From positions 1,894 to 65,893 of IMG/VR virus record IMGVR_UViG_3300026121_000002: 64,000 nucleotides of DNA. One strand, 5' to 3'. The notes under the pieces were generated by a model. The model was not told the DNA's origin. It saw only the letters and a list, made by a program, of their open reading frames with translations, and made no database searches. This document shows positions 1 through 60,040 of the stretch, one piece after another; the first letter of the stretch is position 1, and each line of letters opens with the position of its first letter. This DNA comes from a virus. Taxonomy: Duplodnaviria > Caudoviricetes. The translations under genes and the position numbers were made by a program.

Positions 1-138
1 CACACCCGCGGCATCCATGCGGTCGAGTGCGACGCGCAGGCAGGTGGACTTGCCCGTGCCGGGACCGCCGGTGAGGATCGCGAAGGGCGCGGTGCAGACG
101 AGCTCGACGGCGCGCTGCTGGCTTGGATCAAGTTCCAA
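1..138 (-). CDS. RecD-like SF1B helicase motor domain, N-terminal part (gene runs off the window start)
   Basis: Not in the ORF track. Manual translation from TTG at 138 (AGGAGG 5 nt upstream) gives LELDPSQQRAVELVCTAPFAILTGGPGTGKSTCL..., a Q motif plus RecD-type Walker A. Confidence 0.85.
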   Translation of the reverse strand, partial: MELDPSQQRAVELVCTAPFAILTGGPGTGKSTCLRVALDRMDAAGV

Positions 139-421
139 GGCAGCCTCCTACAAGCATCTGCACGTGAATGCGACTCTCGACGAAGGTCCACAGGCGCCAG
201 GCGCGGTCGGCGATATCTCGGTCCAAGAGGGCTTCTACATGCCCTCGCGCCTCCCCGATCGCGACGCCCGCGTAGAAGATGTTGAGGCGGCTCGGTTCGG
301 ACTCGGCATGCATGCGCGCATAAAACAGGCAGCGCGCAATCGAGCCGACGTGGAAGGCGTCGGACGGATCGGCAATAGAGCGATCGAGATCGAACCCTGT
401 ACTGGTCAGATGGTACGTCAC
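128..421 (-). CDS. hypothetical protein between the two RecD2 halves
   Basis: 97-aa ORF overlapping both neighbours; no motif recognised. Confidence 0.55.
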   Translation of the reverse strand: MTYHLTSTGFDLDRSIADPSDAFHVGSIARCLFYARMHAESEPSRLNIFYAGVAIGEARGHVEALLDRDIADRAWRLWTFVESRIHVQMLVGGCLGT

Positions 422-1335
422 GCCGCCCTCCCGGCGCGCTGCGCACGCATCGCGAATACCTTGGCGAGCCGGCCTTCCGCCTCCGCGAGCTCGGGCAGGT
501 AGATTCTGGCCTCAAGCCGGACCAGCTTTTCGCGCTCGAGCAGCGTTTCCAGCGCGCGGCGCACCGCGGCCTCGTCCGTGATGCGACAAATCTTCGTGGT
601 GACGACGGCGACCAGCTTGCCCTGGGACCAGTAACAGTGGCCTTGCGCGCGTGCCTCGCCCATGGCGTGAAGCAGCGCCGCCTGCAATCTCGGCGGCGAG
701 TCCATCTTCATGCCCATCTTTCGCGCGACCTGGTCCGCACGGACCCAGCCGAAGCCGTCGACGCACTCCATCAGCTCGTACGGATTGGCACTCATGCGCT
801 CTTCGGCGTCGTTGCCCCATTCCGTCGTGACGCGCGCGATCTGACCATCTGTCAGGCCCCAAGTCCGCAAGCGCACCAGCCGGTCGCGGTCACCCTTGTG
901 CTCGTGGTAGGCGGCGAGGATCTCCTGGGCGCGCGGCTCGGTGATGCCATCGACCACGCACAGCGCGGCAGTGTCACCGGCGTCGAGCAGCTTCCAGAGC
1001 GGGTCCACGCCGAAGCGCTCGACCAGCTGCTCCGCACGGCGGCGCGAGATCTGCGGGAGCTTGCCCGCCAGCCAGCCGACGACTCCGCTCACGTCGCTCG
1101 GGAGCAGCACCGTGCACGCGCTGAACTTGTACTGTCGGCCGTGCTTGGGATGGTCCATGAAGACGCCGACCAGCTCGACCGTGTCGCCTTCGGCGGCGCC
1201 GACAAGCTTGCCGACGATCGTGACGTCGCCTGCGTCGTGCTGGGTGCGAACGAGACCGACGCCCCAGAAGTCCGTTCCTCGGACCGTGAAGCTACGGAGC
1301 TCGCCTTTGATTGTCTCGCCCATGGGCATCCTCAA
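418..1335 (-). CDS. RecD2/TraA-like helicase N-terminal region (OB-fold and HhH), lacking the motor domain
   Basis: HPKHGRQYKF, VDGI, NPYELMECVDGFGWVRADQVA and GHCY are typical RecD2 N-terminal motifs; the ORF stops before Walker A. Confidence 0.85.
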   Translation of the reverse strand: MRMPMGETIKGELRSFTVRGTDFWGVGLVRTQHDAGDVTIVGKLVGAAEGDTVELVGVFMDHPKHGRQYKFSACTVLLPSDVSGVVGWLAGKLPQISRRRAEQLVERFGVDPLWKLLDAGDTAALCVVDGITEPRAQEILAAYHEHKGDRDRLVRLRTWGLTDGQIARVTTEWGNDAEERMSANPYELMECVDGFGWVRADQVARKMGMKMDSPPRLQAALLHAMGEARAQGHCYWSQGKLVAVVTTKICRITDEAAVRRALETLLEREKLVRLEARIYLPELAEAEGRLAKVFAMRAQRAGRAA

Positions 1336-3709: not shown

Positions 3710-4086
3710 CGGGACGCCTCAAGTTGCTCGGCGTTTATGCTCTCGAGCTCGGCGATGGCGCGGTCACAGCTGGCACGTGCGGCCTCCGCGGTCGGGCACG
3801 TGCCGAGCTGCTCCACTTGACTTGGTCCGCCGAGCGTGGGCGTCCAGACCCGGATAGCGTGCCAGCTTCCTCCCATTTCGAAGACGCTGAACAGACCGTG
3901 CACATCGTGCTCCCGCTGATAGGTCTCCGTGTGCCAGGGGTCCTGACTTTTCTTGACGTCCACGGACTCCAGCACCGTGCGCATGACGCGCATGCTGGAG
4001 GCGGTGGGGCTCAGCGAGCGAGCGTAGTCTTTCTGGCCAAACCAGAGGGCGAGCGCATCGCGGACCTGGTCGTCGCTGACGATCAC
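3706..4086 (-). CDS. small hypothetical early protein
   Basis: GTG start overlapping the upstream stop; N-terminal SDDQVRDAL motif shared with ORFs ending at 63081 and 63851. Confidence 0.55.
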   Translation of the reverse strand: MIVSDDQVRDALALWFGQKDYARSLSPTASSMRVMRTVLESVDVKKSQDPWHTETYQREHDVHGLFSVFEMGGSWHAIRVWTPTLGGPSQVEQLGTCPTAEAARASCDRAIAELESINAEQLEASR

Positions 4087-4298
4087 GACATCCTCCGCTC
4101 TCGCATACTCAGATCGAGCAGACTCGCGATGTGCGGCGGAGCCTTGCCTCCGTGAGCAAGTCCGATCGCGACCTGGCAGGCCGCCCACTTCGAGACGTAC
4201 CAGTCGGCGCGCCCGTCGAAGAAGACGCGCCACAGGCCGTTCCGGTGCATGACATCGGCGCGGCCATGCTTGCCCGCGAAATGAATCCCCTGGCTCAT
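4083..4298 (-). CDS. hypothetical protein
   Basis: Translationally coupled on both sides within the leftward operon. Confidence 0.5.
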   Translation of the reverse strand: MSQGIHFAGKHGRADVMHRNGLWRVFFDGRADWYVSKWAACQVAIGLAHGGKAPPHIASLLDLSMRERRMS

Positions 4299-4519
4299 GA
4301 CAAGGCCTCAGGAGTCGCAAGGCGCTCTCGCGACGCGAGCAGATCGAGCGCGTTGCATGCGACGTTCGCGGCTTCGCAGTACCCGCAAATGACGCCCAGC
4401 GCGGTGCGCATCCGCTGGTGCGTGAGCTCGCCGCCTTCCTTCAGGCCGGCGATCTCGGCCGCGATGGCGTCGAGCTGGTCCGTGAGCTCGACCTCCAAGA
4501 TGGTCCTCGTCATGTTCAC
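4295..4519 (-). CDS. hypothetical protein
   Basis: Coupled ORF with GGGGA ribosome-binding site. Confidence 0.5.
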   Translation of the reverse strand: MNMTRTILEVELTDQLDAIAAEIAGLKEGGELTHQRMRTALGVICGYCEAANVACNALDLLASRERLATPEALS

Positions 4520-4838
4520 AGTTCCCCCTTGTCCAGGCCGAGCAGCGCCAGCGCTTCCGGTCGGAGTTCGCCGCGCGTGGCGGCATCGGCTTCGTGGTCA
4601 GGGGGGGACGTGTCGTTGTCGCGCAGCTCGGCCACCAGGTCGCGCTCGCAGTGCGCGCAGATGGGGCCGCTCAGGGGCGCGAGATCGGTGACGTCGACGA
4701 GCTTGTCGACGGCGAGGCGCACGCTGCAGTGGGCGCACGGGCGCTGCTCAAGCTCCGAGAGAATCAGGTCGGCGCGGCGCAGCTCGCTGAGAGCGGACAA
4801 GCGTTGTGCTGGAACGACGTGGGTCACACCGCAAGGAT

Positions 4839-4906
4839 AGACACTCAGTGTCCAGGCGACGAAGCACAATCGTCAGACTTCGTTCGCACGAAGACGTTTT
4901 TCGTCT
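4839..4906. promoter_or_regulatory. two putative repressor operators (OL-like)
   Basis: AGACA-CTCAG-TGTCC at 4839-4853 and AGACG-TTTTT-CGTCT at 4892-4906, matching the palindrome found three times between cI and cro. Confidence 0.65.
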
Positions 4907-5199
4907 AGGCGTTTTTGGTGACTCTGCCGCCCGCCAAGCGATCCGTCTTTTGGAGAACATATCTGCCGGTCATCAACCTGCAGCTCCGCTTGCGCGCTCA
5001 GACACGGTTCGCCTTGGCTCGGCGCCGCCATGCTCGTTCGATGAGCAGTCGGATCTGGTGCACGCGGTCTTCACCCGTGACGAGCTCCGCCAGCGGTTCG
5101 CATCCGAGCGCGGCAATGAGCGCCTTGCGTGTCCGCGCTCGCGCACTGCGCCCACGTGGAGACTGCAAGTAACGGTACAAAAGAGTCAACCGAACGGAG

Positions 5200-5679
5200 T
5201 TATGCGCCGCTGTCCCCATCAGTCGGTTGTTGCCTGGCTCGCAACCAGACCTCAAGCATAACTCTCCACTCGTCGAGGTCTTTCACCGTAGGGTGCGAGA
5301 CAATATCCGGCCACGGCATCTTCCGAAGGACGATCGCTGCAGCCGCCTCGACTGGACGCGACCGCAGATACTCGTCCACCTCGGGCAAGTTCGGCAGCGT
5401 GGTTTCCTCTCCGCTTTCAAGCCAGACCACGGTGCGGCCGACCAGCGCGGCGATCCTTTCGATGATTTGCCGGTCATTGTCACGAGGAAGATTGTCGCCG
5501 TCCTCCCACCGCTGCAGACGTCGCACTTGCACACCGACTGCTGCCGCGAAGTCTGGACGCTTCTTGAAGCCGGCTTCCTCGCGAGATCCGCGCACACGTG
5601 CGCCAAATCCCTGCTTATAGGGTGTCCGCTTCTTCTTCGACGCACCGCTCGCAGGGCGCTTCTTGGGCGGCTTAGACAT
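5200..5679 (-). CDS. CI-like XRE helix-turn-helix repressor
   Basis: FGARVRGSREEAG...FAAAVGVQVRRLQRWEDG HTH, divergent from a Cro-like gene; no S24 peptidase domain seen. Confidence 0.75.
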   Translation of the reverse strand: MSKPPKKRPASGASKKKRTPYKQGFGARVRGSREEAGFKKRPDFAAAVGVQVRRLQRWEDGDNLPRDNDRQIIERIAALVGRTVVWLESGEETTLPNLPEVDEYLRSRPVEAAAAIVLRKMPWPDIVSHPTVKDLDEWRVMLEVWLRARQQPTDGDSGA

Positions 5680-19546: not shown

Positions 19547-19686
19547 ACGGTACGGCGATGCCTGTGTCCGTTACGGCTCGCTTCATGTACTGCGGCTGTG
19601 GGGAACCGGGCATCCCGTCGGGCTCATAACCCGGAGAAAGCGCGTTCGACTCGCGCCGCCGCTACCACTTTCCACCGGGGCACCCT

Positions 19687-22600
19687 GTGCACGACTTCCT
19701 CGCGACGTCAGAGCAGCGCGAATGGCTCGCGCAGCAGTTTGACGAGCTGCCGAGCGAGCACATTGTCGTCGCGCCGAGCGCGTGGGCCGAAGAACGCCGG
19801 TATTTGCCGGCGAGCGTGACGTCGCTCCCGGGGCCGTACCGCTTCGACGTCGTGCCGTACCTTCGCGAGGTCCTCGACTGCCTCTCCATCGACTCGCCCA
19901 TCCGCGAGGTCGTGATTCAAAAGGGCGCGCAGATCGGCGCGACGGTTGGCGTGCTCGAGAACGCCATCGGGTACTTCATCGACCACGTCCGGTGTGCGCC
20001 CTGCATGCTCGTGACGGCGGATGCCGAACTCGCGAAGCTTCGCATGGACTCCTACGTCATCCCGATGCTGCAGAGCTCGGGGCTCGACCATCTCATCACG
20101 TCCCACGACGAGATGAGCCATCGCAAGAGTGGCAAGGCGCTCTGGATTTCGACGCCAATTCCCACCCCTGCTGGATTCAGGCCGATCGGAGATATTCAAC
20201 CAGGAGACACGGTCTATGGAGCGGATGGGACGCCCGTCCGCGTTGACTGTGTCTCTCTTGTTCATGAACGCGAGTGCTACGAAGTAGCGTTTGCGAACGG
20301 CGACGTGATCGTTGCCAGTGACGATCACAAGTGGTTGGTGAGAACGACGCACGGATGCACCGACGAATGCAGAATCTATACGACGGCAGAGATGCATCGA
20401 TCCGGCTCTCAAAAAGGGATCGAACACTCGTTCCGAGTGGATGTTCCCAGCGCAGTCTCTGGCACGCCGAGTGATTTGCCGATTGCGCCGTACACGCTGG
20501 GCGCGTGGCTTGGCGATGGCTCTTCGCGCGGAGCGAACATTGCAATCGGAGATGCTGGATTAGGCGTTTTGCGGCGCATCGAGCAGGACGGCTACGAGAC
20601 GCGACAGTGGACCACATCGTTGGGAAAGTGCGCGGTGTTCGGGCTCTATGTCCCAGGCTGTGACGGCAAAGGGACGGACAACTTTTACTCGCGCCTTCGT
20701 CGACTCTCATTGATTGGCAACAAGCACATTCCGGATTCCTACCTGCATGCATCTTGCGAGCAACGTCTGGATTTGTTGTGTGGACTTATGGACACCGATG
20801 GCACGTGCTCCACAAATGGCGCGTGCCAGATTACCCAGAAGAACGAGCGGCTAGCGCGCGAAATCTGGTCGCTGGCAAACTCACTGGGATTCAAGGCGAG
20901 CTGGCGAAGCAGGAGCGCCAGGGCACAGACCGGCGCACCCATGACTGTGTTTGTCGTAGCGTTCTATGCGGACGTGAAGCGGCCGGTCTTCACGCTTCCA
21001 TACAAACTAGAGAGGCTAAAGGCATCGCTGGCTAGCCGATCGTCTGTGAACGCAATCGTTCGCATTGATCCCGTCGGCAAGCGTCTTGTGAAGTGCATTG
21101 GCGTTGATCATCCGAAGCACTTGTTCGTCTGCGGTCGTGGATATATCCCCACGCACAATACCGACAAGAAGCTCGAGTGGAAGGGCGGCGGCTTCCTGAT
21201 CCCGTTCGGCGCACAGTCCGCCAACAAGCTCAGGTCGATCTCCATCCAGATGCTGCTGCGCGACGAGATCGACGGCTGGCCTGACATCGTCGGCAAGGAT
21301 GGCGACCCGCTCAAGCTGGTCGGGGACCGGACTGCCGCCTACGAGCTGAGCCGGAAGATCCTCGACATCTCCACGCCGACCGTGAAGGGGTCGAGCAAGA
21401 TCGAAAAGCGCTTCGCCGCCGGCGACCAGCGCTACTACTTCGTCTGCTGCCTCAAGTGCGGCTTCCCGCAGCGCTTGCGGTGGCGAAGCCTTGAAGAGGG
21501 CGGGGTCATCACAGGGATCGTATGGGAGACCGAGAGTGGGCGCCTCGTCCAGGAGTCGGTCCGTTGGTGCTGCTCGAACTGCCACGCGGCTCATACCAAC
21601 GACGACAAGACGCGCCTGCTGTCTCCTGCCCACGGTGCGGAGTGGCGACCGACGGCGATCTCCTCGTCGCCCTTTCTTCGCAGCTACCATCTGAGCGCGC
21701 TCTACTCTCCCGTCGGGATGCAGTCGTGGGGTAGCTGCGTCGCGAAGTGGCTCGATGCGTGGGACTCCGAGCGTAACCGACCACGCGACACGCGACAGCT
21801 GCAGGTCTTCTACAACAACGTCCTGGGCGATCCCTTCGAGATTCGCGGCGAGCGGGTGCGCTTCGAGGCCGTCAGCGGGCATCGTCGCAGCTGGTACCTC
21901 TACTGCACACCAGACGACCCCACGACGCTCCCGAACCTGATCCCCAACACGACGTGCATGCGCTACTGCGGTAGCCCGGTTCTGTTCCTGACCGCGACCG
22001 TCGACGTGCACAGCGACAACCTGAAGGTCGCGGTCTGGGGCTGGTGCCGGGATCGGCGTGTGCTGCTGCTCGACTACTTCACCTTCGAAGGCGACACGGA
22101 GCAGATGGAGGCGCCGCCGTGGAAGGCCTTGCGCTCGCTGATCGAGGACAAGAGCTACGAGTCTGACGATGGGCATGCGTACGCGCTCGGGATCACGCTG
22201 GTCGACTCGGGCTACCGGACCGATCTGGTCTACCGCTTCTGCGCGGAGTACGAGTCTGGCGTCTTCCCCGTCAAGGGTCGCGAGGTCTCGCCACGAAACC
22301 AGCGCGACAAGGAGTTCTCGGAGTTCACAACTCCGACCGGGCAGCGTGCGTACGGCATCACGGTCGACTTCTACAAGGACCGCTGGTCTGCCGCGCTGAA
22401 GGTCGAGTGGGATCCGAGCCTCGGGATTCAGCCCGTGGGACACTTCAACGCACCGCAGAACGCGACCGACAAGCAGCTGCGCGAGCTGACGGCCGAGACG
22501 AAGGTGGCGCGCGTGGATGCCCGTACGGGGGAGCGGATCGGTTGGGAATGGCGCCGACCCAGTGGTGCTGCCAACGAACTCTGGGACCTGCTCGTCTACG

Positions 22601-22719
22601 GCAATGCCGCGGTGGACTTGGTCGCCTGGCACTACTGCCGGGACCAGCTCGAGCTCGAGCAAACGAACTGGCCCGCCTTTTGGGACGCGATGGTGGCGGA
22701 CGTAACCGGGAGCGGGTGA
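19687..22719 (+). CDS. terL: terminase large subunit, GpA family, intein-containing
   Basis: KGAQIGAT Walker A, LLRDEID Walker B, ISTPT, GDQRYYFVCC, LSALYSP, TVDVH, VDSGY and NELWDLLVY. Confidence 0.95.
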   Translation: MHDFLATSEQREWLAQQFDELPSEHIVVAPSAWAEERRYLPASVTSLPGPYRFDVVPYLREVLDCLSIDSPIREVVIQKGAQIGATVGVLENAIGYFIDHVRCAPCMLVTADAELAKLRMDSYVIPMLQSSGLDHLITSHDEMSHRKSGKALWISTPIPTPAGFRPIGDIQPGDTVYGADGTPVRVDCVSLVHERECYEVAFANGDVIVASDDHKWLVRTTHGCTDECRIYTTAEMHRSGSQKGIEHSFRVDVPSAVSGTPSDLPIAPYTLGAWLGDGSSRGANIAIGDAGLGVLRRIEQDGYETRQWTTSLGKCAVFGLYVPGCDGKGTDNFYSRLRRLSLIGNKHIPDSYLHASCEQRLDLLCGLMDTDGTCSTNGACQITQKNERLAREIWSLANSLGFKASWRSRSARAQTGAPMTVFVVAFYADVKRPVFTLPYKLERLKASLASRSSVNAIVRIDPVGKRLVKCIGVDHPKHLFVCGRGYIPTHNTDKKLEWKGGGFLIPFGAQSANKLRSISIQMLLRDEIDGWPDIVGKDGDPLKLVGDRTAAYELSRKILDISTPTVKGSSKIEKRFAAGDQRYYFVCCLKCGFPQRLRWRSLEEGGVITGIVWETESGRLVQESVRWCCSNCHAAHTNDDKTRLLSPAHGAEWRPTAISSSPFLRSYHLSALYSPVGMQSWGSCVAKWLDAWDSERNRPRDTRQLQVFYNNVLGDPFEIRGERVRFEAVSGHRRSWYLYCTPDDPTTLPNLIPNTTCMRYCGSPVLFLTATVDVHSDNLKVAVWGWCRDRRVLLLDYFTFEGDTEQMEAPPWKALRSLIEDKSYESDDGHAYALGITLVDSGYRTDLVYRFCAEYESGVFPVKGREVSPRNQRDKEFSEFTTPTGQRAYGITVDFYKDRWSAALKVEWDPSLGIQPVGHFNAPQNATDKQLRELTAETKVARVDARTGERIGWEWRRPSGAANELWDLLVYGNAAVDLVAWHYCRDQLELEQTNWPAFWDAMVADVTGSG
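20137..21159 (+). mobile_element. intein with LAGLIDADG homing endonuclease (class 3-type, Ala start)
   Basis: Junctions GK/ALWISTPIPTP and IPTHN/T; block B ASDDHKW, block F VKCIGVD; LGAWLGDG and GLMDTDG motifs; visibly lower GC. Confidence 0.92.
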
Positions 22720-53738: not shown

Positions 53739-53957
53739 TTCCCCCACCCACTTCCCCCACCCGAGCCGAAACTCCACACCACGCCATAACGAGCCAGCGG
53801 CTTCGGATGTGCGGATTTGCCGCAATAAATAGGGTGTCGCTTGGCGTGGAACGGCATGCCGTTGACATGGCCGCTCATATGGTTGTCTCCAATTCCATTT
53901 TATTTCCGAGCCTTTGATGCGGGGGGTAGGGCGTCTCCCCCACCTTTTCCCCCACCC
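53739..53957. other. putative intact attP
   Basis: Tandem pairs of TTCCCCCACCC-like arm sites (53739, 53752; 53935, 53947) flank an AT-richer core containing the perfect palindrome AACGGCATGCCGTT (53850-53863), at the int 3' end. Confidence 0.7.
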
Positions 53958-55186
53958 GGGGCCTCGGAGCGTAGCTTCTGCTCGAGCCGCGCCGCGAAGT
54001 CGACGATCTCGGCCTGGGGCACGTGGGTGTAGTGCTCGGTCATCTCGACGGTCGCGTGGCCGACGAAGTCCTGCAGCATGCTGCGCTCGGCCTTCTGCCC
54101 GGTGAGGGCACGGGCGGCGAGGTTCTGTCCCTCTACCTGAGCGAGCGTGATCATGGTGTGGCGCATGGCGTGGGTCACACAGCGCCAAAGGACAACCCCC
54201 GTGGCGTCCATGGCGCGTCGGTACGTATCACGCGTGGTCGAGTAGGTGTAGAGACAGTCGGCCCGGCGGCGGTTGGCCGCGTACGGGGCGGGGAAGCACC
54301 ACTCGTCGATGCCGGCGCGACCGAGGTGGACCAGACGCCGGCGGTGGGCCTGCAGGATGCCGAGCCAGGTGGGGCCGACGGCAACCTCGCGGGCTTCGCC
54401 GTTCTTGGGCGTGCCCATCTCGCCCTCGTACTGGGCCCGGCGGATGGTGATCAGGCCGGTGTGCATGTCGATGTCCCGCCAGCGCAGCGCGCTCACCTCG
54501 CCAAAGCGACAGCCGAGCAGGAACTGCACGCCGGCCATAACCTGCACGTCGGGGTTGTCGGCGTAGAGGGCGTCGAGAAAGCGGTTGAGCTCGTCGGCGC
54601 TCATGGTCTTGCGCTTCTTGGGCGCGTCCATCGCGGCGAGCAGTTCGGCGCCCGTCTTGCGCGTCTTGCGGCGCACCGTCTCGAGCGCGACGTTGTCTCG
54701 CACGTAGCCCTGTTCTTTGGCCCACGTGAAAAGCGAGCGCATGGCGACTCGGATCTGGATCGCCGTCACGTCGGACACCTTGGCCTGCGCGATCACACGC
54801 TGGAGCTCCTGCGGCTGGATCTCGTCGAGCGGGCGATCGTCACCGAGGGCGGCGCGGTACTTCTTGAGGTGGGAGCCGTAGGGGACGCGGGTGCCCTTGC
54901 GAAGTGTGGCAAGGAAGGCGTCGCACGCGGGGCCAAGCGCGATGCGATCAGTGATGCGGTTACCGAGCTTCGTCTGCACGGCTTCCTCGAGTCGCCGCGC
55001 TTTCTCGATAAGCGCCTCGGCCTTCGAATCGGCCAGGATGATGGCGGTCGTGTCGACAATGAGCTTGCCACCCTGCTTCTTGCGGAGGGTAGCTTCGTAC
55101 TTGAGCTTGCCCGCCTCGCGGCCGAGAAGCTTCAGGCCGTCACTACTCTTGGGTTTGGCTTTCTTCGACACGGGTACTCCTGTCAT
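53900..55186 (-). CDS. int: tyrosine recombinase (integrase)
   Basis: GCRFGE, PKNG, HAMRH and GHATVEMTEHY give the R-K-H-R-H-Y catalytic set. Confidence 0.95.
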   Translation of the reverse strand: MTGVPVSKKAKPKSSDGLKLLGREAGKLKYEATLRKKQGGKLIVDTTAIILADSKAEALIEKARRLEEAVQTKLGNRITDRIALGPACDAFLATLRKGTRVPYGSHLKKYRAALGDDRPLDEIQPQELQRVIAQAKVSDVTAIQIRVAMRSLFTWAKEQGYVRDNVALETVRRKTRKTGAELLAAMDAPKKRKTMSADELNRFLDALYADNPDVQVMAGVQFLLGCRFGEVSALRWRDIDMHTGLITIRRAQYEGEMGTPKNGEAREVAVGPTWLGILQAHRRRLVHLGRAGIDEWCFPAPYAANRRRADCLYTYSTTRDTYRRAMDATGVVLWRCVTHAMRHTMITLAQVEGQNLAARALTGQKAERSMLQDFVGHATVEMTEHYTHVPQAEIVDFAARLEQKLRSEAPGGGKGGGDALPPASKARK

Positions 55187-55485
55187 CCCACTACGCGCTT
55201 GCAGAACGCGTCGAGCGTCTGCCGCGAGAAGCGATTGCCCTTCATGCCGCCACCGCGCTGCCCGCGATGATCTGGCGTGAGCTTTCCGCGAGCGACGGCC
55301 GTGCGCAGGCTGCTCACCGTCGTCCCCAGGTACGACGCCGCCTGCTCGGTGTCGAGGTAGCCCTCCGGCTGATGCTTCTGTGCGCTGAGCGCCTCGCAGA
55401 CGGCATCCTTGACGAGCGAGTGCAGCTGCTCCTGTGTCAGCGTCACCACCAGCGTGTTCGGTTCCATTTGCTTCGCCGCTCCCAT
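55183..55485 (-). CDS. xis: excisionase-like HTH protein
   Basis: YLDTEQAASYLGTTVSSLRTAVARGKL; coupled to int. Confidence 0.75.
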   Translation of the reverse strand: MGAAKQMEPNTLVVTLTQEQLHSLVKDAVCEALSAQKHQPEGYLDTEQAASYLGTTVSSLRTAVARGKLTPDHRGQRGGGMKGNRFSRQTLDAFCKRVVG

Positions 55486-55525
55486 CGTTCCCTCCCCATC
55501 ACTTCAAGCCCAGTTCCCCCACGCC

Positions 55526-56187
55526 TGCCGCGCCCGGTCTTGCCGAACCTCACCGTGCCTCGCCGGCCGTGCCAGACCTCGCCATGCTCGGGCTAGCCGC
55601 GCCACGCCCTGCCTGCCGTGCCCTGCGATGCGTAGCCCAGGCTTGCGTTGCTGCGCCTGCGCAGCCGTGCCCTTCGAGGCCCAGCGCTGCCCCGCGATGT
55701 CCGTGCCTGCCGTGCCGCGCCGTGCCGCGCCTAGCCGTGCCCGACCGTGCCAGACCACTCCGAGCCTGCCTTGCCTTGCGCTTGCATGCCCAGCCCCGCC
55801 GGCCGAGCCGGACCTCGCCTCGCCTAGCGAGGCGATACCTGCCCCGCCCCGTTCGACCCAGCCTTGCCGGGCCGCGCCTAGCGCTGCCTGCTCGGCCAAG
55901 CCGTGCCCCGCCATGTCTTTCCCTGCGGTGCCTAGCGCCGCCTGCCTGGTCTCGCCCAACCTACCCACGTCTTGCCTCGCCTTGCCGTGCCTGCCGCGCC
56001 CATCAGTGCTCTGTCGGTCCGAACCTCGCGCCACCTAGCCTGCCGATCCGAGCCCTGCCGCGCCTAGCGATGCCGTGCACTTCCTCGCCTGCCCCGCCCC
56101 GCCGAGCCATGCCGTGCCCGGCCGAGCCCTGCCTAGCGTTGCCAGCGGTACCCAGCCGAGCCTTGTCGAGCCTCACGCTGCCCTGCC
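55526..56187 (-). ncRNA. GGY-NN pentamer array of 14 units, putative guide-RNA array of a RAMP-associated system
   Basis: The minus strand parses into about 121 pentamers, each a near-constant triplet (mostly GGC/GGT) plus a variable dinucleotide. The run is broken every 6-11 pentamers by a 4-nt step, mostly GGCA. RNA status is inferred. Confidence 0.8.
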
Positions 56188-56193
56188 CGCCCA

Positions 56194-57105
56194 TCAGCCC
56201 GTGGCCCGCAGCGCCGCGAGTACCTCCCCGCGATCAACGGCGTGCGCTCGAGCAGCGCGTTCCGCCGCGGTGAACCTGTCCATGCCGGCGCGCTCGTACT
56301 CGCGGGCGAGCTCGACGGTTGCGAGGAGCCGACTATCCGCGGCGCGGTCGACGGCATCCGGCTTCACGAGTCGATCGAACTGTTCGAACACAGGCCGCAG
56401 CTCGATAAGGTGCGCGTAACGTCGGCGGACTACCGCGAGCTCGGCCAGCGCCTGGTGAAGCAACTGCTGCGCGCCGTGCTGGTCGATCTTGATGGTCATG
56501 CTGCTCGCACGATGGCGGACCGCCGGCACATCGGGCTGCGTGGCGTCTTCGTCGTCGTCCTCGTCGTCCTCGTCATCCTCGTCATCCTCGTCGTCGAGGT
56601 CGCCGTGCTCGTCGAAGCCATCACCATCGTCATCATCGCCGTCGTCGGGCTCCGGAGCCGGCGCGGGCTTCGGCGCGGGTGCTGGAGCGGGCGTGGCAAC
56701 CGCAAACAGAGGTTCCATGTGCTGTCGCGCCTCACTCCGAAGTCGCTCTCCCTCATCTTGAAGCCTGTCGAGGTCAAGAGGTTCAGAAGTTCGGGACGCC
56801 GCCGGCTTCAGCCACGGGCAGTTCGTCTCGCGGCCGTACTCGATCGACGCCGACTGCACGAGCGCGCGGATGGTGCGCGGCTTGTCGTCCTCGCGCGGCA
56901 GGATGCGTACACGTACCTTGCAGATGAGCCGGTCGGCCTGCTCGATTCGGTAGGCTTGTGCGGCCAGCGCATCATCCCAGCTGAAGAACCCATGCAGCGC
57001 GCTGCCCGGGTTTCGCGCGACCTCGAGGACGTGCACGGGTGCGAGCTTGCCGTCGCGGTCGAGCTCGCCGAGCTCGTCAATGGCGGACTGACTGAGATCT
57101 GGCAT
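56194..57105 (-). CDS. RAMP-associated accessory protein with long acidic insertion
   Basis: GKLAPVHVLEVARNPGSALHGFFSWDD..AA..YR N-domain, poly-D/E linker, ALAEL...RRYAHL.EL C-domain; coupled to the RAMP gene. Confidence 0.75.
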   Translation of the reverse strand: MPDLSQSAIDELGELDRDGKLAPVHVLEVARNPGSALHGFFSWDDALAAQAYRIEQADRLICKVRVRILPREDDKPRTIRALVQSASIEYGRETNCPWLKPAASRTSEPLDLDRLQDEGERLRSEARQHMEPLFAVATPAPAPAPKPAPAPEPDDGDDDDGDGFDEHGDLDDEDDEDDEDDEDDDEDATQPDVPAVRHRASSMTIKIDQHGAQQLLHQALAELAVVRRRYAHLIELRPVFEQFDRLVKPDAVDRAADSRLLATVELAREYERAGMDRFTAAERAARAHAVDRGEVLAALRATG

Positions 57106-57803
57106 CAGCCTTCCCCATCGATGCTGAAGGTTCCCCAGCCCATGCCCGTGAGTGACTTCTTGCTGTCTGGCCGCCCCTCGCCGACACCGACCTGCATGCC
57201 CGCGCGCATGAGCAGATTGGCGACGTCGGTGGCGGTGAACTGATCGGCGTCGTAGCGGACGCGCAAGTTACAAGCCCACTCGCGCCACATCGGACGCGAG
57301 CGGATGTCGACCACGCCGGTCTCATTGCGCACGTGCGCGGTGTGCTGCTCGGGCGTGCCCTCGATCTTCACGATGGGCGAGCCGTCCTCGTCGAGGCCGT
57401 CGGCGAGGACGAAGAGAGAGAGCTTGGCGCGCGTCATCTGAAAGCCCACCAGGCGGCAGGCCGAGATCATCGCGGCGCGGAAGCTCGCCGCCGGGATGCC
57501 GCACCAGCCCTCGGGAGCCTTGTGCTTGGCATTCTCGAACAGCGCCTCGAAGTCCTTCGGAGCGCGGGCCTTCTTCTTGTTGGTGCCGCCCTCTTGCTGC
57601 GCGGCGATCATCGCGCCCTTGTTCCAGAACCGGTTCTGCACATAGGGCGCACTGCCCACGATGCGAAACTCGGCGACCCGGATATCCGGCGCGGCGATGG
57701 TGATGCGCTGTTCTGGCGATGCGCTCGCCGCCGACTGCTTCGATGTGCCTTGCTTGGGCGTCTTGAGCTTGGGCGTGTCTGTCGTCTCTGTTGATTTGGC
57801 CAC
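57105..57803 (-). CDS. stand-alone RAMP/Cas7-like protein
   Basis: GTG start with G-rich ribosome-binding site; FRIVGSAPY first strand, GIPAASFRAAM, C-terminal Gly-rich loop AGMQVGVGEGRP...GMGWGTF. Confidence 0.75.
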   Translation of the reverse strand: MAKSTETTDTPKLKTPKQGTSKQSAASASPEQRITIAAPDIRVAEFRIVGSAPYVQNRFWNKGAMIAAQQEGGTNKKKARAPKDFEALFENAKHKAPEGWCGIPAASFRAAMISACRLVGFQMTRAKLSLFVLADGLDEDGSPIVKIEGTPEQHTAHVRNETGVVDIRSRPMWREWACNLRVRYDADQFTATDVANLLMRAGMQVGVGEGRPDSKKSLTGMGWGTFSIDGEG

Positions 57804-57905
57804 GTGTCTTCCCCCCCTGATGATGTTGTGTCTGCAGACTCGCCAACGGCTCGAGTCGATGATCATGGTGTCGCTCAGCTCTCTTACCTGGCTCCGCGCG
57901 AGCAG

Positions 57906-58673
57906 TTACTCTGCAGCTGCTTGACTCGGTGCCCAGCCGCGGCGGTGTCGATTGCGCAGCACGCTTCCGACCAGCACCCCGATGCCTTCCTCGATGCTAA
58001 GCGCTGGGCAGTGCATCGAAAACGTGGCGTCGTCGCCGCAGTCCCATGAGTTCTCTCCCTTGCCGGGAAAAGGGATCTGCTCGCCCTCAAGCATGTCGAT
58101 GTCGACGTGCGTCCGCGCCCGATCGAAGGCGCGTGGCAGGCGTGTGAGGCCCCAGCGCGAACGCGTGAGCTTGGCGCGTGCTCGATAGCTACGCTCTGTC
58201 ATCGGCACCAGCACATCGCGCTCTTCGAGCACTTCCACCTTGCCCTGCCTCATGTGAAAGCCGAGCGGGTGCCAACTGCCGTCCACCCTTCGCGGCGTCG
58301 AAGATGACCAACTGTTCATCGGCGCGAACAGCTTCCAGTACAGCGCCGAGTCGTGGATCGATATGTCCAGCGCTCGACTCGGTCCGCGCCAGCACATGTT
58401 GAGCAAATCGATCGAGAGCCAGAACTGCGCGACCAGTGGCACCTGCACGCCCAGCGTGACGGTGTGCTCATCCTCCAACCAGACGTGCAACCCGCACGCG
58501 CCGCTACGCAAGTGGTACTCGAGACGGAGGCCCAGCGGTGCCCTGTCGTCTGTCCACACGGAAGCCGACAGAGCCCCCTCGCGAGCGCTGTCCTTGCAAT
58601 GACGCGCGCGCCACTCAAGCCCGTGCCACACGCGTGCCCAACTCCACTCATCCGCGAATCTGGTCATGTCCAT
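57906..58673 (-). CDS. hypothetical Trp-rich phage protein
   Basis: Long ORF with GGAGG ribosome-binding site. Confidence 0.6.
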   Translation of the reverse strand: MDMTRFADEWSWARVWHGLEWRARHCKDSAREGALSASVWTDDRAPLGLRLEYHLRSGACGLHVWLEDEHTVTLGVQVPLVAQFWLSIDLLNMCWRGPSRALDISIHDSALYWKLFAPMNSWSSSTPRRVDGSWHPLGFHMRQGKVEVLEERDVLVPMTERSYRARAKLTRSRWGLTRLPRAFDRARTHVDIDMLEGEQIPFPGKGENSWDCGDDATFSMHCPALSIEEGIGVLVGSVLRNRHRRGWAPSQAAAE

Positions 58674-58984
58674 CCCTCCAGCGTCCGAAACTCCACCGGC
58701 CGCCCCTTGCAGTGCGCGTCCTCGATGCCCCTCCGCATGCCGCGCGAGACACCTAAGTCGGTGTAGACGACGGACTTCTCGAGGCGCGCTCCGAGCGCCA
58801 GGCCCGCGAGGATGCCGAGCTCGCGATCGTCCGGCTCACCGTCGTCGAGCACCTGGGTAAAGAGGAGATGGCTCGCAAACGGGGCCTCGCCACGCCGCAG
58901 ACAGTCGAGCATGCAAGCGCGCGCATAGGCCGTGTTGCGCTCGACGTCGCCGGCGAGCGGGGATTCGAGGATGACGGTGATCAT
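58664..58984 (-). CDS. nucleoside-deoxyribosyltransferase-like small protein
   Basis: VILESPLAGDVERN..YAR, PFASHL and GVSRGM pattern. Confidence 0.65.
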   Translation of the reverse strand: MITVILESPLAGDVERNTAYARACMLDCLRRGEAPFASHLLFTQVLDDGEPDDRELGILAGLALGARLEKSVVYTDLGVSRGMRRGIEDAHCKGRPVEFRTLEGWT

Positions 58985-59259
58985 TGGCGACTCCGTTCGC
59001 GAGGGTCCAGTCCGAGCAGCAAGTCCCACATCGCGACCATCGCGCCGTTCTTGGTGAAGCCGTGCTCTTCGATGAATGCACTTTCGAGGACGTGCGCTCG
59101 CGCTACGTAGCCGCCATTCGGATCGACCCAGACTGAGAGGCTCTTGCAGCTGCCAAAAACGCGGCGAGCTTCGCCCTTGAGCCGGACGAGGGTGACGGTG
59201 CGTCCCTTCAGGCGCTCTCGCTCCAGGACGCGCCCGTGGCTGAGTAGCGTCTTACCCAT
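58981..59259 (-). CDS. hypothetical protein
   Basis: Coupled ORF. Confidence 0.5.
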   Translation of the reverse strand: MGKTLLSHGRVLERERLKGRTVTLVRLKGEARRVFGSCKSLSVWVDPNGGYVARAHVLESAFIEEHGFTKNGAMVAMWDLLLGLDPRERSRQ

Positions 59260-60040
59260 GCGCCACCACCTTTCGATCTGCAGACTCGACGCGCTTGAAG
59301 CTCAGCACCCAGACCCACGGGTTGCTCGACCAGGGCGCGCGCTTGGCGTTGAGCGAGTCCCAGAGCGCTCGATAGGACTCGACGGCAATGCGATCGCTCT
59401 TCGCAAAATGGGGCTCCTCCTCGCGCCAGTTCTGAAAGAACTCGCCGTCTGTCAGGTAGTTGGGCGCGATGAGTGCAGCGTCCCAGACGTCCAGAGGGAT
59501 GCCCTCCGCGCGCGCGTCCGCTTCACTGATGTCCTGCAGCCGCTCGACGCGCACGTCGGTGATCTCAAGCGTCAGGCGCGAGGCCCAGCGGGGCATGTGT
59601 AACGACGGGCGCCACTTTGGGCAGCTCGAGTCCGTCTCTGACGCGGGGCAGTCTGGCCACTCGCCGGGGTAGCGCTTACCGGGATGGTCGGCGCGATACT
59701 CGACTTCATTCTCGCGAATGTCGTCAGGCTCGTATTCGCCAGGCCAGATCAACGCGAACGTCTCGCGCACCCACAGCCGATCGCCAGGCACGCCGAACGG
59801 CGACCAGCGGTCTGCACACCGTGGCCAGGGTGTGCAGAACGTTCCGCGCCAGCGCCAAACCGCTGGCTCGTCCTTAGGAATTAGCCCGACATCCATCGCT
59901 GCATGGAACGAGCGCGATGTCGCAGCATCCATGATGGCCAGTTGAGGCTGTGGGGACAGCAGCCGGCGAGTCTGCGTCTTCGCGCCAGCCAAAATCGCAC
60001 GGATCATCGGCGCCGCGAACAAGATGGGCCGTTCACGCAT
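59252..60040 (-). CDS. ASCH/PUA-like phage protein
   Basis: ERPILF..MIRAILAG.KTQTRR, PGDRLWVRET, WRPSLHMPRWASR, VERLQDISE and NPWVWV. Confidence 0.85.
   Translation of the reverse strand: MRERPILFAAPMIRAILAGAKTQTRRLLSPQPQLAIMDAATSRSFHAAMDVGLIPKDEPAVWRWRGTFCTPWPRCADRWSPFGVPGDRLWVRETFALIWPGEYEPDDIRENEVEYRADHPGKRYPGEWPDCPASETDSSCPKWRPSLHMPRWASRLTLEITDVRVERLQDISEADARAEGIPLDVWDAALIAPNYLTDGEFFQNWREEEPHFAKSDRIAVESYRALWDSLNAKRAPWSSNPWVWVLSFKRVESADRKVVAHG

Follow-up and report, generated by a model that had tools for sequence, protein, structure and literature searches.

The window analysed here is a stretch of 64,000 nucleotides (nt) of tailed-phage DNA (positions 1,894 to 65,893 of the IMG/VR record IMGVR_UViG_3300026121_000002), and the locus in question occupies its positions 55526-57803, where three linked elements lie on the minus strand. 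The first of them, vipr (57105-57803), encodes a protein of 232 amino acids (aa) and starts with GTG behind a G-rich ribosome-binding stretch, while an alternative longer form with an ATG start extends to 57866. It is followed by a vap-like accessory gene of 303 aa (56194-57105), whose ATG shares its A with the upstream TGA (TGATG), an overlap of one base, the two genes being a minimal two-gene locus, and then by an array of 668 nt (55526-56193) that lacks credible coding potential and in which GGY triplets alternate with variable dinucleotides (GGY-NN units). The order on the minus strand is vipr, vap, array, and then an excisionase-like gene and an integrase gene downstream, all in the same direction. 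An earlier note, made from the letters of the sequence, had placed three linked elements on this strand, and all of them were found at the positions that it claimed. This locus very probably represents a system of the VIPR (Viral Interference Programmable Repeat) kind in a temperate myovirus-like phage, composed of vipr, a vap-type gene, and a staggered vrRNA array. The evidence that carries this identification is the fold of the Vipr protein, its sequence link to the Vipr protein of Escherichia phage SUSP1, the array and the way in which it is punctuated, and the joint occurrence of the three parts in related loci.

VIPR is a kind of system already published, to which this locus adds a further example. 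According to three preprints, VIPR consists of a stand-alone ancestral RAMP (Vipr) and an accessory vap gene and comprises seven types (10.64898/2026.04.26.720920). Each vrRNA is made up of 9-16 YNNGG repeats, and base pairing of the NN dinucleotides with double-stranded DNA (dsDNA) skips every third target base; the vrRNAs are transcribed and co-purify with Vipr, and the system represses transcription, with natural targets in rival phages and satellites (10.64898/2026.04.26.720920). In staggered vrRNA arrays, the guides are 'one-nt overlapping' (10.64898/2026.04.26.720920, fig. S18 legend). Moreover, each repeat takes up one protomer, and two neighbouring protomers together sequester GGY (10.64898/2026.04.26.720927), and the SUSP1 system silences the excision recombinase of its satellite, reading codon positions 1-2 and skipping the wobble position (10.64898/2026.10.15.759431). 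The mention in the earlier note of 'VIPR'-type phage systems combining a RAMP with GGY/NN RNA is therefore borne out, since these 2026 preprints describe such systems.

The Vipr protein has no Pfam family and matches phrog_4652, whose function is unknown. Its family is very large: of 5,672 candidates, 5,491 proteins reach E ≤ 0.001, and a search against representatives gives 2,465 clusters of homologues at 50% identity. The AlphaFold model, built on 30 homologues (predicted local distance difference test, pLDDT, 83.9), presents the Cas7-family RAMP fold with a single RRM that the earlier note had anticipated from RAMP-like motifs, and it gives 45 Foldseek matches at E ≤ 0.001, those listed being all chains of Csm, Cmr, type III-D/E, or type VII CRISPR effector complexes; the closest are Csm3 subunits of type III complexes. 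The G-loop GVGEGRP is located at residues 206-212 and the thumb hairpin near residues 152-173. At the sequence level, the sole significant match among 177,635 solved-chain sequences is the Vipr protein of SUSP1 (36pp_D), with E 0.0032 when a single sequence is used and E 1.7e-5 with the family profile. The residues of SUSP1 Vipr in contact with GGY include R138, D177, W178, and R179, of which W178 stacks on G2 (10.64898/2026.04.26.720927). The comparison of these contacts is confined to an alignment of 46 residues, in which SUSP1 H17, K33, and E71/M72 are not alignable; within it, R138, D177, and R179 align with R170, E209, and R211, identical or conservatively exchanged residues, all three of which are invariant in the family alignment.

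The array shows a marked periodicity of five bases. Its base autocorrelation reaches 0.497 at lag 5, as compared with 0.23-0.33 at lags 1-4 and 6-8, and pairs of GGY triplets five bases apart amount to 8-21 per 200 nt across 55600-56300, against a background of 0.54 per 200 nt (window mean on the array strand) and a maximum of 3 on the other strand. The stretch 55525-56187 holds twelve runs of 4-11 GGY-NN units, all on the minus strand, the plus strand having none, and no further run of at least 6 units was found on either strand anywhere in the 64 kb. Counted from the stop codon of the partner gene, the first GGY triplet is 2 nt away and the first long run in register 11 nt; thus, the earlier note was right about the presence of an array directly behind the partner gene and wrong about a spacing of 6 nt.

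A four-base unit, GGCA, followed by GGY causes the loss of one base in register (-1) and splits the array into about 12 guides. Nine of these delimiters are intact (56093, 56044, 55995, 55946, 55843, 55770, 55711, 55617, and 55529) and two are degenerate (AGCA at 55892 and GCGA at 55563), all on the minus strand, and the resulting units measure 49, 49, 49, 54, 49, 73, 59, 94, 54, and 34 nt, with some 100 nt more at the 5' end. In minus-strand order, the guides are U1a (56182-56144), U1b (56143-56090), U2 (56089-56041), U3 (56040-55992), U4 (55991-55943), U5 (55942-55889), U6 (55888-55840), U7 (55839-55767), U8 (55766-55708), U9 (55707-55614), U10 (55613-55560), and U11 (55559-55526). The range of 34-59 nt previously proposed for the units has the right lower bound, but its upper bound is exceeded by the indel-bearing units of 73 and 94 nt. 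The idea that each unit represents one guide fits both the conserved GGCA/GGY punctuation and the description of staggered arrays in the legend of fig. S18 (10.64898/2026.04.26.720920). In a hand count over ten guides, GGY occupies 65 of the 90 in-register units, and the best kept guides are U8 (10 of 11) and U1b (9 of 10). In addition, the heptamer GCTAGGC has six of its eight occurrences in the window inside the 668-nt array (55729-56137, minus strand), in the form of [C/G]GCTA followed by GGC. The NN of these units is TA, which in the reverse complement corresponds to a Tyr codon, and they occupy differing positions in U1b, U2, U5, U6, U7, and U8. This recurrence may reflect duplication of guides or a common target motif.

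The association of these elements is not peculiar to the window. In a sample of 55 genomic loci encoding Vipr homologues, runs of at least five GGY-NN units occur on the strand of the gene in 48 and on the opposite strand in none, and the runs adjoin the gene in 47 of those 48, the only run of L041 being 5 kb away. Seven loci (L010, L017, L021, L043, L047, L053, and L054) lack a run; several of them are short contigs, and a looser measure detects weak arrays in four of the seven. The expectation of the earlier note that GGY arrays would accompany the homologues is confirmed by this collection, always on the strand of the gene. With tblastn, 40 of the 55 loci have a homologue of the partner next to vipr and on its strand, in 39 of them via the N-terminal domain; the partner gene pointed out in the earlier note is in this sense conserved. 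The GGCA punctuation is also present in the relatives, where it separates blocks of 8-11 units, and 43 of 51 related loci have GGCAGGY in their arrays.

The cyanophage Cy-LDV1 (L056, BK059895.1, locus 4031-5637) encodes a homologue with 56% identity in the order vipr, array, vap, array, excisionase, and both flanking GGY-NN arrays are unannotated in the deposited record. Homologues with about 32% identity are present in 27 Mycobacterium and 5 Gordonia phage records. In the named Mycobacterium, Gordonia, and cyanophage records, the Vipr homologues are annotated as hypothetical proteins.

By analogy with the published systems, the locus would be expressed and its array transcript processed, with cutting or reading out at the GGCA/GGY junctions to yield guides of about 34-59 nt. 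Vipr protomers would polymerise along each guide, one per five-base repeat, so that GGY would be held by the protein and NN presented, and the resulting ribonucleoprotein filament would bind dsDNA by reading NN-x-NN-x..., one base in three being skipped. This binding would block transcription of genes of rival mobile elements and, hence, silence them. As regards the model put forward in the earlier note, one RAMP subunit per five-base step with GGY as handle and NN as address agrees with the SUSP1 preprints; in these, however, two adjacent protomers jointly hold each GGY. The transcriptional silencing of rivals that the note offered as the output is what the VIPR preprints report for SUSP1.

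Several observations weigh against the VIPR reading of this locus. In the array, 25 of the 90 in-register units (28%) are non-GGY, U3 keeps GGY in 4 of its 9 units, internal indels affect U7 (73 nt) and U9 (94 nt), and the GGY occupancy of 0.73 ranks 35th among 52 arrays, below the median of 0.81 of the relatives. Since such non-GGY units are present and GGY substitutions abolished silencing in SUSP1 (10.64898/2026.04.26.720920; fig. S12 legend), several guides, U3 above all, may be weak or dead. In the protein, the sequence match to SUSP1 Vipr is limited to 46 residues of the thumb-to-G-loop stretch, and the position of SUSP1 W178 corresponds to G210, an invariant Gly in the family. Moreover, a promoter and terminator scan gave nothing above shuffles and no consensus. 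The decay of units, the indels, the low rank in occupancy, and the fact that most guides are without a detectable target could also be understood as signs of an eroding, largely inactive VIPR locus, in which the genes would be intact, the array decayed, and few or no guides would work. This is unlikely: an occupancy of 0.73 falls inside the range of the relatives (0.38-1.03), internal degeneracy is frequent in vrRNA arrays (10.64898/2026.04.26.720920), U8 and U1b are well kept, neither Vipr nor Vap is truncated or departs from any invariant family column, and a real gene is matched by U8 perfectly and in phase, as described below.

The remaining alternatives dispute the nature of the system. 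That the best structural matches of the model are Csm3 of RNA-targeting type III complexes might indicate a protein that acts like Csm3 or Cmr4, binding or cutting RNA along a contiguous guide and not silencing DNA; nevertheless, this is very improbable, since neither a CRISPR array nor a Cas10, Csm, or Cmr partner was found, the guides are GGY-NN repeats instead of spacers, the only solved sequence relative, SUSP1 Vipr, is described in its preprints as binding dsDNA by a gapped code, and the U8 match obeys the one-base-skip rule exactly. The array could, in turn, act as DNA, either as protein-binding sites near the integration module or as a recombination-prone repeat, and its adjacency to a RAMP gene would then be incidental. 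Its position directly upstream of the excisionase-like and integrase genes and the failure to predict a promoter or terminator would suit such a role; however, the arrays of relatives follow vipr and vap on their strand whatever their neighbours (48 of 55 loci, as opposed to 0 of 55 on the other strand), and the published vrRNAs of this repeat type are transcribed and co-purify with Vipr, which makes this option even more improbable than RNA targeting. Finally, long ORFs (open reading frames) overlap the array on both strands (176 aa at 55504-56034 on the minus strand and 279 aa on the plus strand), and the repeat region could be protein-coding or a chance stretch of low complexity. Long ORFs are, however, expected by chance in DNA with 65% G+C, the period is 5 and not 3, with an autocorrelation at lag 3, the lag at which the neighbouring coding DNA peaks, of 0.242 in the array versus 0.367 in the adjacent gene, and one-base slips of the register recur every 34-94 nt; a coding or chance origin has, accordingly, almost no probability. 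A VIPR system with a staggered array, some of whose guides may have lost their activity, is thus retained as the reading of the locus.

The absence of cas genes and of a CRISPR array, which had been noted earlier for the window, holds within the limits of the checks made by PADLOC and for direct repeats: no Cas family match at E ≤ 1e-3 was obtained among the 79 ORFs of the window, no repeat-spacer CRISPR array was found, and the only short-range direct repeats of the window fall inside the GGY-NN array. Rfam gave no match across 55200-58000.

The vap-like partner gene matches phrog_15946 (E 5.7e-15) over residues 15-77. Its model (pLDDT 71.8) comprises an N-terminal domain at about residues 1-80, with three helices, a beta-hairpin, and a winged-helix-like look, that is confidently predicted, conserved in the clade, and characterised by the motif F-x-W-D-D...A-A...Y-R-L-x-Q-A-R; a disordered linker at about residues 84-205, of low complexity and rich in Pro and Asp/Glu; and a helical C-terminal part. 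The 303 aa of the protein exceed the 121-226 aa of 39 relatives, and the linker is usually absent in members of the clade. The length of the linker also varies among near-identical relatives, proteins of 303, 276, and 272 aa having 88-89% overall identity. When the whole model was compared with the PDB by Foldseek, the best value was E 3; solved structures searched with a profile had E ≥ 0.21, and the ESM Atlas returned unnamed viral clusters only. Because vap1 of SUSP1 enhanced protection (10.64898/2026.04.26.720920), Vap probably assists silencing as an accessory protein.

Candidate targets of the ten cleanly parsed guides were searched with the published one-base-skip rule. On the contig of the phage itself, no guide gives matches above order-shuffled controls, which agrees with what is reported for published VIPR systems (10.64898/2026.04.26.720920). 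The only hit concerns guide U8 (55708-55766, minus strand), which consists of 11 units, 10 of them GGY, followed by GGCA, and whose NN string is TC GT CT AC CG AC TA GC AC GC AC (22 specified bases). A single metagenome scan with U8 yielded one match, at positions 928-959 of a contig designated L057, in which 22 of 22 read bases agree and each of the 10 skipped bases falls on a third codon position. The match covers codons 8-18 of a gene for a 235-aa protein that combines the Resolvase N-terminal domain PF00239 (E 1.3e-40) with the first half of a Recombinase domain, and it spells VAVAYVRVSTE, the catalytic-serine motif of serine recombinases. Among 259 guides of the window and its relatives, U8 is the only one that spells the motif Y-x-R-[VI]-S-[TS], with 0.022 expected from shuffles. 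In L057, the region 37-980 (minus strand) contains this serine recombinase gene and then a NikA-like mobilisation gene, and this gene content suggests a small mobilisable element rather than a phage.

The chances are about even that U8 is aimed at the 5' coding region, with the catalytic Ser motif, of the serine recombinase of a competing element. Against it, this target is a single match whose chance expectation is roughly 0.1 on an uncalibrated estimate; on 13 viral relatives of the L057 recombinase, U8 reaches 16 of 22, with controls that average 15.1 and have a maximum of 17; no other of the ten guides beat shuffled controls on those 13 viral recombinase loci; and the exact gapped patterns of U8, U1b, U10, U5, U6, and U2 have no matches in viral_contigs. 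A further step, somewhat more doubtful, would take U8 as a codon-phased guide that, by reading just codon positions 1 and 2, silences the recombinase of rival plasmids, satellites, or prophages through an unchangeable motif, from which escape by mutation would be hard. Under this codon-phased reading of U8, the GCTAGGC units could represent paralogous guides against the same region of diverged recombinase alleles. The idea that recombinases are targeted recurrently across the clade was rejected, given that only 1 of the 259 guides spells the motif.

Regarding the phage, the window has 65% G+C and, by gene content, a complete-looking temperate tailed phage, with matches to terminase, portal, protease, major head, tail sheath, tube, tape measure, baseplate, and primase families. 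The IMG/VR record is 65,893 bp long, and the locus has the viral location expected of VIPR. Downstream of the array, the HTH (helix-turn-helix)/excisionase-like gene occupies 55183-55485 and the tyrosine integrase gene 53900-55186, both on the minus strand and in the direction of the vipr module. Upstream of vipr, three minus-strand genes lie within 57906-60040: one of unknown function (phrog_20814), a gene of the DUF7768 or nucleoside 2-deoxyribosyltransferase-like kind (58664-59029), and a phrog_874 gene (59252-60040) that weakly matches ASCH. Elsewhere in the window, a tRNA-Met gene (19592-19663, plus strand) immediately precedes the gene for a terminase large subunit of unusual length (region 19592-22719). 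The encoded terminase is 1010 aa long and has, in its N-terminal half, matches to separate terminase families as well as weak ones to DnaC/primase-like families; to judge from these matches, it could be a fusion or an insertion-bearing protein.

VIPR is a recently described form of RNA-guided DNA recognition with a non-contiguous code, proposed to predate CRISPR, and the present locus is a well-resolved natural example of its staggered-array form in a high-G+C temperate phage. It leaves the known mechanism of VIPR unchanged. What is new here is the candidate match of U8 in a metagenomic serine recombinase gene, which, resting on one match, offers a concrete candidate natural target for one guide; if it is true, VIPR systems would rely more generally on the silencing of recombinases, so far seen in SUSP1 and its satellite.

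Among known systems, the Cas7 backbones of class 1 CRISPR (Csm3, Cmr4, type VII Cas7, and Cas7-11 domains) have the fold in common with the Vipr protein at a sequence identity of 9-17%. However, they advance in steps of six bases with one base flipped, whereas the VIPR type uses a five-base step with three bases sequestered, and class 1 systems have Cas partners and a repeat-spacer array, neither of which was found at the locus, which is accordingly not classed as CRISPR-Cas. The type II VIPR of SUSP1 is closer, with a homologous Vipr, a G-loop that reads GVGDWRP in SUSP1 and GVGEGRP here, and the same five-base GGY-NN code; the candidate target of U8, like that of SUSP1 vrRNA4, is also the recombinase of a rival and is read in codon phase. 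Nevertheless, where SUSP1 has the Trp stacked on G2, Gly is present here, and Vap is apparently unlike that of SUSP1. Moreover, SUSP1 vrRNAs are about 100 nt long with a conserved 3' tail and a pseudoknot, while the guides of this locus abut directly at GGCA/GGY and the tail is absent; therefore, the locus is not filed as type II (SUSP1/P. fulva clade), in which every vrRNA ends in an invariable, structured 3' tail. In comparison with staggered-array VIPR, the locus is distinguished by a long Vap (303 aa) with an acidic, Pro-rich linker and by an array more degenerate than the median, none of which represents a categorical difference. With these systems, it shares the lack of cas genes, of a CRISPR array, and of self-matches above controls, together with a single-RRM RAMP, a vap gene, GGY/NN pentamers, residence in a temperate phage, and guides that overlap by one base at GGCA/GGY.

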